Source: an uncultured Candidatus Saccharibacteria bacterium (GTDB lineage Bacteria > Patescibacteriota > Doudnabacteria > UBA920). Taken from it: a DNA stretch of 64,000 bases. Within the stretch, counting starts at the first letter, position 1. Every line of letters starts with the position of its first letter. The DNA lies in the NCBI GenBank assembly GCA_964504715.1, contig CAZDEP010000001.1:16830-80829 (forward strand), in the 5' to 3' direction. The translations under genes were made by a program, and so were the position numbers. Under the pieces are notes generated by a model. The model did no database searches and had not been told where the DNA came from. It was given only the letters and a program-made list of their open reading frames with translations. This document shows positions 24,829 to 28,168 of the stretch, one piece after another.

Positions 24829-25350
24829 TCAGAATTTAAACCAGTGCATTACCCTTTGCGCCGTGGTCGGTTCGGTGTCCGGATGCTCAATTAGGAAAGA
24901 AAGAAGAAAATCCCTGACTTCATCCGGGTCTTGCTCGCTGAGCTCAATGACCATTACCTTATTCAAATAATTGGAGGTTTCAAAGTTTAAAGTCTTGTGA
25001 TGTTCCTTATCCACCACCCAGAAGTGCTTAATTTGCTTATAGGGCATATGCACAGTGCCATGGTTTATGCCTTTGGAATTGAGTTCAACAGTTACCGTTC
25101 TGGGCGTTTGCCGGGAAAAGTAAATAATCAGCAGGGTAATAAGCCCTACGGTAACGGAGGCAAAAATATCTTTTTGGATAAGTACAAAAAAGCCAATGAA
25201 CAATATGGCAATGGAAATAAGCGTAACGTACCACCCGGCTGATTTTTCGTAAAATTTGAATTCCGGCGCTTCCCAGGAAATGTTTATTTTACTTTTTGCC
25301 ATAATTTTAAGAGTTGATAATTTTTGGCGGAAGCGAGAGGATTCGGTCAC
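24829..25350 (-). CDS. Hypothetical membrane protein (2 TM) with a C-terminal soluble domain
   Basis: 173-aa ORF with hydrophobic segment YVTLISIAILFIGFFVLI. Confidence 0.35.
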   Translation of the reverse strand: MTESSRFRQKLSTLKIMAKSKINISWEAPEFKFYEKSAGWYVTLISIAILFIGFFVLIQKDIFASVTVGLITLLIIYFSRQTPRTVTVELNSKGINHGTVHMPYKQIKHFWVVDKEHHKTLNFETSNYLNKVMVIELSEQDPDEVRDFLLSFLIEHPDTEPTTAQRVMHWFKF

Positions 25351-25541
25351 TTCACGCTGCGCTTATTTCTCCGCCTGCCCATGGATCGAATCGCGCTACG
25401 CTACAGCGACCCCTGCCGCTATTTGTTGCTCCTAACCCCGCAACAAATTTTTTGCTTCGCAAAAACCGCTTTTTTCAAATCCTTCTTAATTTGTTCGCCA
25501 ATGGCTTAAGAAGGGATGGAATTCAGTTTATCTTTTCTAAC
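25346..25541 (+). mobile_element. About 195-bp tRNA-3'-end-associated element, copy 1, bounded by a 21-bp direct duplication of the tRNA-Ser(UGA) 3' end
   Basis: tggcggaagcgagaggattcg occurs at 25325-25345 and again as the genuine tRNA 3' end at 25542-25562. The core gtcacttcacgctgcgc...gcgctacgctacagcgacccctgccgct is shared, in inverted orientation, with copy 2 at 27843-28035. Confidence 0.6.
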
Positions 25542-25631
25542 TGGCGGAAGCGAGAGGATTCGAACCTCTGAAGGGTTTTAGCCCTTAGCGGTTTTCAAGA
25601 CCGCCCCGTTCGACCGCTCCGGCACGCTTCC
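25542..25631 (-). tRNA. tRNA-Ser (anticodon UGA)
   Basis: Reverse complement GGAAGCGTGCCGGAGCGGTCGAACGGGGCGGTCTTGAAAACCGCTAAGGGCTAAAACCCTTCAGAGGTTCGAATCCTCTCGCTTCCGCCA; long variable arm, anticodon loop CTTGAAA. Confidence 0.8.
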
Positions 25632-25667
25632 AGATGAATTCATATTTATTATACCATTAAGACGGCA

Positions 25668-25708
25668 AAAAAACAAAGACGCCCGGCTCTAGAACAGGCG
25701 TCTTGCTT
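25668..25708 (-). terminator. Rho-independent terminator downstream of the anti-sigma-like gene
   Basis: On the minus strand: caagacgcc-tgttctagagccg-ggcgtctttg followed by ttttttt. Confidence 0.6.
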
Positions 25709-25849
25709 TTACCCTAGGGGCCAAATTTGATTTTGGCCACTTTGGGAGTGTTGTTTCTTTTCCGGCATCTTTTGCCGGTTTTATTTCAGGACTGTATTGC
25801 TATCCTGAGGCCGGCAAAGAATTTTGCTTTGCCGAATCAAAATACCAAA

Positions 25850-27013
25850 TCATTCAACGTACTGGGGGAGAGGGTCTTCTATAATAAACCCGCCTACCGC
25901 ATTGTTCGGATTGATTTTGGACTCTTCCTGCAATTCGTCGCGGATTTTAGGCGCAGGTTTTAGCAGGCTTTCCGGGCTGGTGGTGGTGTCCGGCTGTTTT
26001 TGGGATTCCGGCGAGCTGGTGGCCGCAGGGGCGGGGTCTTCAGTTCGGCCCAGGGCAGAAAGTTTTAAGGCAATAATTTTTGTACCGGATTTTTTGCCTG
26101 TGACCGCGACTTTTTCCCCGATTTTAAGTTCGGAGAAATTTAAATTTTTGCCGTCCGCGGAAATAAGGGTAGTGGAGGCATTTACGGCAAAGGAGGTTTT
26201 TTCCACCTGCAGGCCGTCTTTTTCAATTTTAGTGATTTGTCCGGAGAGGGTTACGCTGTCTTCCGACCCCAAAAGGTTTGTAAGGGCCGCTTCTGCCGTG
26301 GTAATTTCCACGGATTGCTTAATTTCGGAAATCCGGGTTTGATTTTTTAAACTAAGGGCAATTACATCTTTGGTGTCGTCGTTTTGGGCAATGTCAGAAA
26401 TCAGAGCCTGTTCTTTTTTGCCCACTTCTTCCAGGGAGTTTAAAAGTTCAGGGTTAGCCGAGGTTATGGATTCGCGCGAGAGGGTATTTACTTCTTCTGC
26501 CGCCTGCTGTGTAGCTTTCGAAACTTCCTTAATTGCAGCGAGCTTTTGGCCGGTATTGTCGCCCGGCAGGCTGGCCAGTTTTTGCGCTTCTGCTACTCTT
26601 TTTTTTGCAATTTGCACCTGCAAATAAGCCCTCTGGATTTTGTCGCCGGCGAATTTTACCCTAAATTGCTCCGCGCTTTTTTTAATTTCAAAAAGTTTTT
26701 GCCCGGGCAAACTGTTGGCCGTGGCGTAGGTAAACCCTCCAACCAAAAGCAAGCCTGCACAAATTGCCACAGCAGGAATAAAATTAAAGACTTTCAAAAA
26801 TTCCAAGTTCCAGCCAAAACCCACCGAGGGCTTTTGGGCTAGGTATTTGCGGCGGCTGGCGGCAAGGGCGGGGGTAGCTGCCCGAATAGAGCTTAAGCTT
26901 TTTAAAATTTGCGCCCACTCTTTTTCCTCTGAAGACATGCTCAAAATCCCGAGCTCATTTAAGGAGCCTTTTTTTACAGCGGTGATTAATTGTTCGAGTT
27001 GTCTGTCGTCCAT
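25850..27013 (-). CDS. Single-pass membrane protein, putative anti-sigma factor partner of the adjacent ECF sigma (cytoplasmic N-terminus, one TM, extracytoplasmic low-complexity domain)
   Basis: Translationally coupled to the sigma gene (start overlaps its stop at 27013). TM helix FIPAVAICAGLLLVGGFTYA. Confidence 0.45.
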   Translation of the reverse strand: MDDRQLEQLITAVKKGSLNELGILSMSSEEKEWAQILKSLSSIRAATPALAASRRKYLAQKPSVGFGWNLEFLKVFNFIPAVAICAGLLLVGGFTYATANSLPGQKLFEIKKSAEQFRVKFAGDKIQRAYLQVQIAKKRVAEAQKLASLPGDNTGQKLAAIKEVSKATQQAAEEVNTLSRESITSANPELLNSLEEVGKKEQALISDIAQNDDTKDVIALSLKNQTRISEIKQSVEITTAEAALTNLLGSEDSVTLSGQITKIEKDGLQVEKTSFAVNASTTLISADGKNLNFSELKIGEKVAVTGKKSGTKIIALKLSALGRTEDPAPAATSSPESQKQPDTTTSPESLLKPAPKIRDELQEESKINPNNAVGGFIIEDPLPQYVE

Positions 27014-27603
27014 TAGGGTTTTTCCTGGAGTTTTTTAAGCTCCAAAAGCTTGGTTATGGCGCGGTGCTGTATGACTCGTATGGCGCCTTCGGTCTTATTT
27101 AATATTACGGCGATTTCGGCGTTGCTTAAATCTTCCAAAAATTTTAATTTAATTACCGCCTGTTGTTCCGCGCCCAGTTCTTTTAAAAGTTTAAGCAATG
27201 CCGCCTGCTCGTATTCGAGCTGCAAAAGGTCCACGGTGTTAGTCTCGTATTCCAGGGTATTTTCCACATCTTCCAAACTTACCGTAAGCTTTTTTTCCCG
27301 GTAATAATCTATAACCGTGTTGCGGGCAATGCGGTAAATCCAGCCAAGGAAAACTTCTGGTTTGTCCAGGGTGCCTAACTTGCCGAAAGCTTTTATAAAG
27401 ACTTCCTCGGCCAAATCTTCCGCTACTTCCTTGTGGCCTACGCGGTAAAAAATGAACCTGTAGATTTTTTGGAAGAGCAGGTCATACACCTGGCCAAAAG
27501 CCGCCTCGCTCCCACCTTGGGCTTTTTTCACCAATTGGGCGAGTTCCTGGGCATTTTCATCAAATTCCATTGTACTAATATTTAAGACGTCAGAGTTGGG
27601 CAT
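27013..27603 (-). CDS. ECF-type RNA polymerase sigma-70 family factor
   Basis: Region 2 reads QGGSEAAFGQVYDLLFQKIYRFIFYRV...AEDLAEEVFIKAF. Region 4 HTH reads LSNAEIAVILNKTEGAIRVIQHRAITKL. Confidence 0.8.
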   Translation of the reverse strand: MPNSDVLNISTMEFDENAQELAQLVKKAQGGSEAAFGQVYDLLFQKIYRFIFYRVGHKEVAEDLAEEVFIKAFGKLGTLDKPEVFLGWIYRIARNTVIDYYREKKLTVSLEDVENTLEYETNTVDLLQLEYEQAALLKLLKELGAEQQAVIKLKFLEDLSNAEIAVILNKTEGAIRVIQHRAITKLLELKKLQEKP

Positions 27604-27748
27604 TTGTTACAAATTAAGGAATATTTCCGGGGAAAAAGCAATGCCAGAGAGTATTATAGCAAAAAACGCCGATTTTGGGCGTTTGGCTTGCTTTGACCGT
27701 AAGTTATTTTTATTGTAAAATTATTCAAGACCAATAAGTTTTTGCAAC

Positions 27749-27842
27749 GTGGAGAGGTGGCTGAGCGGTCGAAAGCGGCACCGTGCTAAGGTGTTGTCCG
27801 GGTCAAACTGGACCGTGGGTTCGAATCCCACCCTCTCCGCCA
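27749..27842 (+). tRNA. tRNA-Ser (anticodon GCU)
   Basis: GGAGAGGTGGCTGAGCGGTCGAAAGCGGCACCGTGCTAAGGTG...GGGTTCGAATCCCACCCTCTCCGCCA; long variable arm, anticodon loop GTGCTAA. Confidence 0.8.
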
Positions 27843-28035
27843 TTGGCAATCAAATAACCCGATCAGTTGTATGACTGCCAATAGCTAACAAAGGGATTCG
27901 AAAAGAGCGGTCCCCGGGCAAAGCCCGGGGAATTGAAAGCGAGCAAGCGCAGCTTTCAATAGCGGCAGGGGTCGCTGTAGTGTAGCGCGATTCTATCCGC
28001 CGCCAGGCGGATAGATGAGCGCAGCGTGAAGTGAC
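27843..28035 (-). mobile_element. About 190-bp tRNA-3'-end-associated element, copy 2 (inverted relative to copy 1), bounded by a 28-bp direct duplication of the tRNA-Ser(GCU) 3' end
   Basis: cgaatcccaccctctccgccattggcaa occurs at 27822-27849 (tRNA 3' end plus 7 nt) and again at 28036-28063. The core atagcggcaggggtcgctgtagtgtagcgcgattc...gagcgcagcgtgaagtgac is the reverse complement of the copy 1 core. Confidence 0.6.
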
Positions 28036-28168
28036 CGAATCCCACCCTCTCCGCCATTGGCAAACACGCAACTTTCAGGTTTCGTGGTTGCCAATGGGAC
28101 GCAAGCAGGATTCGAAAAAAACGTTTTTGCTTGGGAAGCACGATTAATCAAGGGCAGGGTTTTATAAA

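Follow-up and report, generated by a model that had tools for sequence, protein, structure and literature searches.

Our analysis concerns a 64,000-nucleotide stretch of contig CAZDEP010000001.1 (assembly GCA_964504715.1; called here the window), in which both tRNA-Ser genes are followed by a gene-less insertion of about 215 bp. Each unit consists, on the tRNA strand, of a variable hairpin spacer that follows the CCA of the tRNA, a conserved module of about 140 nt, which we call S, and a second copy of the tRNA 3' end, from C56 to the CCA. We put forward, tentatively, that such units could well form a family of miniature, non-autonomous elements that integrate at tRNA 3' ends in Doudnabacteria-like bacteria of the candidate phyla radiation (CPR), served by an integrase in trans. 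The best named matches of the RecG protein encoded in the window are to Candidatus Doudnabacteria and Patescibacteria.

Three tRNA genes were found in the window by ARAGORN, two of which are tRNA-Ser(UGA) and tRNA-Ser(GCU), and the Rfam results were concordant. A first-pass annotation had called both genes, and rightly so, except that the GCU gene starts at 27751 and not at 27749. The direct repeats of the tRNA 3' ends that it reported downstream of both genes are exact: positions 25325-25345 equal 25542-25562 (21/21, repeat family D4), and 28036-28063 equal 27822-27849 (28/28, repeat family D2), the latter repeat extending to 30 of 31 identities when 28036-28066 is compared with 27822-27852. 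About 195 nt on the tRNA's own strand separate each tRNA-Ser from the displaced copy of its 3' end. The shared core in opposite orientations, described earlier as about 75 bp long, is in fact longer, namely a 99-nt inverted repeat with 85% complementary arms (25325-25423 and 27958-28056), and at the level of structure the homology of the two downstream segments spans about 140 nt. Two core motifs of 18-19 nt occur exactly twice each in the window, compared with 0.01 occurrences expected by chance. The features of the unit at the UGA site (element A) and at the GCU site (element B) are as follows.

25542-25631, minus strand: tRNA-Ser(UGA), intact, CCA encoded (ARAGORN; Rfam tRNA, 55.1 bits).
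25484-25541, minus strand: spacer of element A, with 17 nt of no known origin at its start.
25489-25524, minus strand: decayed GCU-type tRNA-Ser 3' end with flank, inside the spacer of element A (GAATTCCATCCCTTCTTAAGCCATTGGCGAACAAAT).
25346-25483, minus strand: S copy A (138 nt), made up of AGGATTTG, hairpin 1, hairpin 2, AGCGGCAGG and the long irregular helix, ending in ...GTGAC.
25325-25345, minus strand: distal copy of tRNA-Ser(UGA) C56-A76, 21/21.
27693-27721: promoter-like site before tRNA-Ser(GCU).
27751-27842, plus strand: tRNA-Ser(GCU), intact, CCA encoded (ARAGORN and Rfam).
27843-27892, plus strand: spacer of element B, which forms a hairpin with the CCA end of the tRNA as part of the stem (TTGGCAAT...TGCCAAT).
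27893-28035, plus strand: S copy B (143 nt; covariance model R1, 174 bits; RNAalifold, pair counts, z-score -6).
27893-27898, 27912-27930 and 27932-27960: the 5' strand of the closing pairing P1, hairpin 1 and hairpin 2 of S copy B.
27961-27969: invariant AGCGGCAGG of S copy B.
27970-27988, pairing with 28019-28036: long helix of S copy B, with a variable tip at 27989-28018.
28036-28063, plus strand: distal copy of tRNA-Ser(GCU) C56-A76 with 7 nt of flank, 28/28.
28064-28141, plus strand: stub of an older truncated unit, a hairpin followed by AGGATTCGAAAAAAACGTTTTTGC..GAAGCA.

The conserved part, S, thus measures 138-143 nt. It starts with [A/G]GGATT[C/T]G and AAAA(G)AGCGGT, after which come hairpin 1, hairpin 2, AGCGGCAGG and the long helix, composed of GGTCGCT, GYGT and GCGC, a variable tip, and then GCGC, GCGT and AGTGAC. 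Copy A is supported by alignments, by its fold and by the covariance model R1 (157 bits). The distal copy that follows starts at C56 of the T-loop (CGAATCC...) and ends with CCA; at the UGA site, 22 nt separate it from the ATG (25302) of the downstream gene for a 157-aa protein.

That the inserts are too small to encode an integrase, as had been pointed out, agrees with our finding of no open reading frame (ORF) in either of them; in S, stop codons interrupt all three sense frames. In every copy, S is largely free of stops in its three antisense frames, and antisense ORFs of 61-85 aa cross the elements (25314-25571 and 25324-25509 on the plus strand, 27850-28071 and 27956-28141 on the minus strand). 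We rejected these ORFs as spurious, since they have no protein homologues: an antisense-frame profile of S gave no real match in a set of 5.8 billion proteins, nor did a 73-aa antisense ORF in a set of 1.84 billion representative proteins.

An assembly artefact, named earlier as what might undo the observation, is excluded, since element A recurs without a single mismatch in three independent Logan assemblies (L002, L035 and L036). A contig from the European Nucleotide Archive (L034) covers the element partially; its single C-to-T difference, which would give a G-U pair, was discarded, lying 6 nt from the contig end. In a relative, the GCU-site element is identical across four independent assemblies (L005-L008). 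In several runs, Logan contigs break off at, or inside, the 3' part of tRNA-Ser(GCU) (L002 begins at 27839, L004 at 27761), and L003 (window 25542-27839) ends exactly at the 3' ends of both tRNA-Ser genes. Such breaks may reflect downstream sequence variants in the population, because the repeats of 21-28 nt are shorter than k=31.

The loci of relatives, collected via RecG homologues, have a conserved order: ComF, tRNA-Ser(GCU), extracytoplasmic function (ECF) sigma factor, DUF5667 protein, tRNA-Ser(UGA), the 157-aa gene, tRNA-Arg (where present) and RecG. In L005-L008, whose RecG is 74% identical to that of the window, an S unit follows tRNA-Ser(GCU) and none follows tRNA-Ser(UGA); the layout in L005, an intact tRNA and a displaced 3' fragment, is that of the window. 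Neither tRNA-Ser carries an element in L009 (a 1.2-Mb genome) and L033, and S is likewise missing from L019 at both genes, from L027-L031, and from the UGA site of L025, the fetched region of which lacks the GCU tRNA. Empty sites are therefore at hand for the UGA gene in L005, L009 and L025 and for the GCU gene in L009, L019 and L033, and the units vary in presence with the precise boundaries expected of tRNA-borne islands and cis-mobilizable elements (CIMEs). Moreover, the sequence after the window's distal UGA copy aligns with the sequence that directly follows the tRNA in L005, that is, with the ancestral flank, which identifies the 217 nt at the UGA site as an insertion. This is the opposite of an ordinary conserved tRNA flank, a reading that the first-pass annotation had taken care to consider.

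The same comparison bears on the two genes between the tRNAs. Elements A and B are inverted around them, and the sigma/anti-sigma pair had been suspected to be the cargo of a composite unit. A composite transposon, in which the inverted elements mobilise the pair, is extremely improbable in our opinion. Such cargo should be found only where flanking elements occur, whereas the pair is kept between both tRNA-Ser genes, in the same order, in the element-free L009, L027-L031 and L033; synteny refutes this explanation, and the sigma-DUF5667 pair is not cargo. The mirror symmetry noted around the pair does exist, but it is due to a local inversion of the tRNA-Ser(GCU) segment, which in L005 and L009 runs the other way and in the element-free L027-L031 has the window's orientation. 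Relative to ComF and RecG, the inversion is limited to this segment and leaves the sigma pair in place.

Several further rearrangements were observed at these tRNA genes. Single tRNA-Ser genes flip between lineages while their neighbours stay: the GCU gene is inverted in the window and in L027-L031, and the UGA gene in L019, L024 and L033 (compared genes: window 27751-27842, L005:1266-1357, L009:6919-7010, L027:5067-5158, L019:5125-5214, L024:1-90 and L033:9202-9290). A small SRPBCC/polyketide-cyclase-like gene (window 28169-28615, plus strand), between the GCU-site stub and ComF, belongs to the inverted segment described above, and neither L005 nor L009 has it at this position. In L019, a run of N (3084-3183, a scaffold gap) upstream of the sigma gene occupies the place where relatives hold tRNA-Ser(GCU), and a tRNA-Ser(GCU) without an element stands at the contig start (1-76). 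The GCU site of L027-L031 holds an insertion separate from S. At L027:4989-5158 (minus strand), and also in L028 and L030, a 26-nt insert (GTAGCATATAAATATATAGGATTGAC) comes after tRNA-Ser(GCU), and after the insert a 52-nt copy of this tRNA that runs from the anticodon loop to the CCA and lacks 4 nt, CCTC, in the acceptor strand; this footprint is an anticodon-loop-type attachment (att) site with almost no insert. L029 (4135-4222) and L031, with the same RecG protein, have a single tRNA with a shortened and probably defective 3' end. Insertions, tandem stubs and inversions together point to the tRNA-Ser genes as hot spots of recombination and rearrangement in this clade.

Five copies of S are known, namely two in the window, one in the relative with the 74% identical RecG and two in other contigs of metagenomes or metagenome-assembled genomes (MAGs). 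A degenerate core pattern had one true match among Joint Genome Institute (JGI) metagenome contigs (L011) and one among 185,579 species genomes (L016), along with five chance matches (L012-L015 and L017); a first genome scan with two gapped motifs gave no match. When the covariance model R1 was run across about 300 kb of fetched loci, it returned the five known copies and tRNA T-arms only. The element is rare and patchy. The L011 copy stands at a contig end, with the tail CGAATCCCTTCCTCTCCGCCA, and the L016 copy, from a MAG labelled Saccharibacteria, has the tail CGAATCCCGCCGGACCCACCA and a terminator directly after it; its tRNA end is not of a tRNA-Ser, and of the upstream tRNA the last 7 nt only are visible.

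All five copies have the same junction, GTGAC followed by C(G/A)AATCC, with four different tRNA 3'-end sequences behind it. Each distal copy starts at C56 of the T-loop, and the T-stem/loop region is one of the two canonical crossover classes of tRNA-integrating islands, the anticodon loop being the other (PMC4383910). A displaced 3' fragment beside an intact tRNA is the defining mark of such islands, 1836 of which are listed with an attP in the T-stem region (PMC4383910), and in our loci the insert is bounded in just this manner, with the fragment in direct orientation. The attL/attR-type footprint claimed for these tRNA ends is thus borne out in its layout; the integrase, mobilisation in trans, and the action of S as RNA or as DNA are what we infer.

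The contig of the L016 copy (CAYODY010000012.1) also encodes a protein resembling a 23S rRNA methyltransferase, the homologues of which (62-85% identity) include one labelled Doudnabacteria. For this reason the class-level placement of L016 is doubtful, the Saccharibacteria label may be wrong, and a spread of S across classes was not established. The closest long-contig relative by this methyltransferase, L021, has no synteny with L016 and no tRNA there.

Another line of evidence concerns the fold of S. From four copies, RNAalifold predicted a closing pairing of GGGAUU with AAUCCC (P1) and the long 3' helix. In a hand-made alignment of the five copies (A4), built around the hairpins, 98.8% of the cells at 38 proposed pairs are paired and 17 of the 38 pairs change on both sides; this was reached by none of 500 shuffles, and all slid controls were far lower. 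The stems of hairpins 1 and 2 are kept with wholly different sequences between copies, that is, with full compensation, and in the long helix one U-A is exchanged for C-G, L005 has two double changes, and several changes involve wobbles. G-U pairs are found on the tRNA-sense strand only. Folding energy was uninformative as to the strand, with z equal (about -6) on both. Single-sequence folds of copy A and of the L016 copy again gave the long helix, which ends exactly at the junction of GTGAC with C56; this junction falls within the predicted helices P4 and P1. P1 itself does not appear established in this model, since it has a single covarying pair, the base of which the A-type stub at the GCU site already contained. 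As far as five sequences in a hand-made alignment can tell, then, S seems to be a conserved fold with compensatory, strand-specific changes, for which RNA and single-stranded DNA would fit equally well, a like signal being expected of either. Folding the core, as had been advised, yielded two conserved hairpins and a long irregular helix. Both that helix and the unpaired AGCGGCAGG are very highly conserved in sequence. The conserved unpaired GAGCGGT and TAGCGGC could be candidate sites of protein binding or tertiary contact. S (27893-28035 and 25346-25483) holds 6-7 AGCG tetramers on its tRNA-sense strand against 0-1 on the opposite strand, an excess that follows partly from the GCGY/GCGY helices.

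The fold might suggest that S is a non-coding RNA gene of the host, transcribed together with the tRNA as its 3' trailer and spread by homologous or microhomology recombination via TTCGAATCC and CCGCCA. The compensatory changes, the very high conservation of the unpaired AGCGGCAGG and the helix, the location of S on the tRNA strand in all copies, and the lack of a terminator between tRNA and S at either window locus would all suit such a role. The module is nevertheless very rare and patchy (1 JGI metagenome match, 1 in 185,579 species genomes) and is missing from several close relatives, stubs and decay mark it as dispensable, and a constant C56 junction at a non-Ser tRNA end (L016) would hardly arise from microhomology alone. 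We therefore regard this explanation as improbable. Were S transcribed, its transcript might have its 5' end near TAGAGGGATT and its 3' end at the CCA.

Unlikely to the same degree, though of a different nature, is a structure-guided element or guide-like RNA that homes to tRNAs. Here S, as RNA or single-stranded DNA, would find the T-loop and T-stem by base pairing (GGGATT with AATCCC, G with C56), leaving a fixed 21-nt target-site duplication (C56-A76); in a variant, S would be the scaffold, and its 3' tail the guide, of an RNA that directs an effector to the tRNA gene. This proposal would explain why, at four kinds of tRNA end, both flanking copies agree fully with the tRNA of the site, which is what one expects of a target-site duplication, and it suits the position of the junction inside the predicted P4 and P1, the wobble pairs that favour the tRNA-sense strand, and the TT that precedes the target in the tRNA where AC precedes the copy. 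A scaffold followed by about 21 nt equal to the adjacent target also resembles the guide RNAs of TnpB and Cas12. On the other hand, the pairing that it requires, P1, is unproven, with one covarying pair and the A-type 5' base already at the GCU site, and the L005 copy has an uncompensated G57A. The window contains no effector gene, Rfam gives no match to S, guide-RNA families included, and terminator-like hairpins stand between tRNA and S in L005 and L016. If true, such homing would mean a gene-less mobile element whose specificity is carried by its own fold.

Traces of earlier events are preserved at both sites. The stub beyond element B has hairpin arms at 28054-28072 and 28079-28097, the first of which overlaps the distal copy (inverted repeat I6); its AGGATTCGAAAAAAACGTTTTTGC..GAAGCA (28107-28141, direct repeat D7) resembles the 5' part of an A-type S and then breaks off. 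A local alignment of the stub with S copy A has 29 identities over 31 positions of the latter, plus gaps, a score that none of 1000 shuffles reached. The spacer of element B, together with the adjoining first bases of S, is identical at 58 of 64 positions to a stub that follows the distal copy in L005. Within the spacer of element A, the decayed GCU-type end, which keeps the TTGGC flank, aligns with the 3' end and flank of tRNA-Ser(GCU) with a local score of 26 (reached by 1 of 2000 shuffles). The stubs, the L005 match and the decayed end together show repeated entry of units beside the tRNA. To judge from these sequences, the older units lie distally and are decaying, and the unit at the UGA site descends from one that was once at a GCU-type site, probably in the same genome. 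The stubs, the decayed copies and the match between spacer and stub agree with the model of CIMEs and tandem accretion reviewed previously (PMC5704250).

Decay of this kind invites the view that nothing but remnants is seen: larger tRNA-Ser-specific islands or prophages would have been deleted almost fully, leaving two att arms, with S as immobile arm sequence. An att footprint with a tiny 26-nt insert does exist in the clade (L027), stubs and decayed copies indicate that decay is common, and no mobility gene lies nearby. We find this possible but doubtful, given that independent deletions would not yield one module of about 140 nt with the same 5' and 3' limits at five loci and four kinds of tRNA end, that no S copy was found beside an integrase, phage or plasmid, and that a gene-less unit of the A type occurs at two sites of one genome. 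Among the candidates named at the outset (a miniature element, a remnant, a structured RNA), a miniature element with a structured non-coding core is thus favoured over a random remnant: the same boundaries and the same fold in five copies argue for a complete small unit.

The miniature integrative element that we favour would work as follows. The unit would undergo site-specific recombination, with the crossover in the T-loop, by a tyrosine integrase that is supplied in trans from a gene elsewhere; new units would enter beside the intact tRNA, pushing older ones distally, where they would decay. S would be a requirement in cis (an attP arm or a folded recombination substrate), a small-RNA cargo, or both. 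Element A is a hybrid, having a tRNA end of the GCU type inside it and one of the UGA type at its distal border, and could have arisen by recombination between a unit adapted to GCU and a partial site of the UGA type. Such a model accounts for the constant junction, the stubs and the hybrid nature of element A.

Some observations weigh against this model. No integrase, transposase, reverse transcriptase, TnpB or Cas1 was detected by Pfam among the approximately 48 ORFs of the window, and no such gene is annotated in the related loci fetched. In five assemblies of the same strain the UGA site was filled in all, with neither the empty allele (...TTCCGCCA joined to AAAATTATC) nor a circle junction (...GTGAC, CGAATCC..CCGCCA and GTTAGAAAAG in succession) being seen. 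Just five copies are known, one of them partial and one (L016) with 7 nt of upstream tRNA. Compensating stems and G-U wobbles are not expected of double-stranded att arms, and the free co-variation of the hairpin 1 and 2 stems is left unexplained. Finally, the distal copies match their own tRNA past the shared T-loop, which would need an attP pre-adapted to each tRNA or a pre-existing partial copy, and how the units come to match several tRNAs is likewise not accounted for.

As regards possible sources, the window genes are housekeeping genes and a type-IV-secretion-like cluster. This cluster (PrgI-like, TraC-like and VirB4/TraG-type ATPase; window 8198-11765, L009:18114-21174, L027:15594-18583) stands beside the RadA-RecG region in all relatives and therefore looks like core genome and not like a mobile element. 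Rfam 15 has no family for S (E up to 1 over 5.5 kb, E up to 10 per element); the best match on S scored 16.5 bits against a gathering score of 70, and only tRNAs passed the threshold. A derivation of S from tRNA-Ser, in the manner of short interspersed nuclear elements, was rejected, its local alignments being no better than those of shuffles. A phage or plasmid origin was sought by blastn against phage and plasmid collections, with no match; of three scans for the motifs in viral contigs, one was empty and the others yielded two chance matches (L001 and L020), and no copy of S beside an integrase, phage or plasmid was found in the genome, metagenome, viral and plasmid scans. Miniature inverted-repeat transposable elements were set aside because the ends (TTGGCAAT... 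and ...GTGAAGTGAC) are not inverted repeats and the duplication is of 21-28 nt, always from C56 to CCA, versus the short target-site duplication of 2-14 bp.

If the proposed family is real, these gene-less units of about 215 bp would be smaller than any other kind of tRNA-integrating element seen to date, and they occur in CPR bacteria, a group about whose mobile elements little is known. The finding also has a bearing on the annotation of MAGs from this group, in which duplicated tRNA ends may add contig breaks and the elements yield spurious ORFs, while insertions at tRNA-Ser genes, stubs and inversions can pass for composite units with cargo.

It is instructive to compare the units with systems already described. 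Insertion of IS200/IS605 elements leaves the target unduplicated and would break the tRNA in two. Our units resemble the palindrome-associated transposable elements (PATEs) of this insertion sequence group, and the TnpB omega-RNA, in being small, gene-less and hairpin-rich, with a strand-specific fold and a scaffold followed by target sequence, and differ from them in the duplication, the lack of TnpA and TnpB in the window and the lack of an Rfam guide-RNA family; an origin from such a PATE was rejected on these grounds. Integron attC sites have R''-L''/L'-R' symmetry and GTTRRRY boxes and recombine at attI, not at tRNA genes. With attC and other folded single-stranded substrates the units share a short length, a strand-specific structure that is kept while its stems vary, and, as proposed here, mobilisation by a recombinase in trans, whereas the symmetry, the boxes and the use of attI are all absent here. 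The homing CRISPR RNA (crRNA) of type V-K CRISPR-associated transposons likewise involves an element downstream of a tRNA and a tRNA-identical stretch beside an RNA scaffold; in our case, however, Tn7-like genes, Cas12k and a CRISPR repeat are all lacking, and the copy is an exact duplication from C56 to CCA at the element border. In comparison, tRNA-integrating islands and CIMEs have in common with the units a regenerated tRNA, a directly oriented displaced fragment from the T-loop/T-stem, tandem accretion with decayed older units and no internal integrase (PMC4383910, PMC5704250). They are unlike them in size, about 215 bp here against kilobases for known CIMEs, and in that our element is devoid of gene remnants, being one conserved module with compensating structure; no cognate integrase or parent element was found for S in the collections searched. 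While an att-type footprint at tRNA genes is thus well known, we found no described counterpart of an integrase-less, one-module unit this small in the literature and libraries searched, and the single conserved module S offers a concrete object with which to seek its recombinase or effector and to ask whether it acts as DNA or as RNA.

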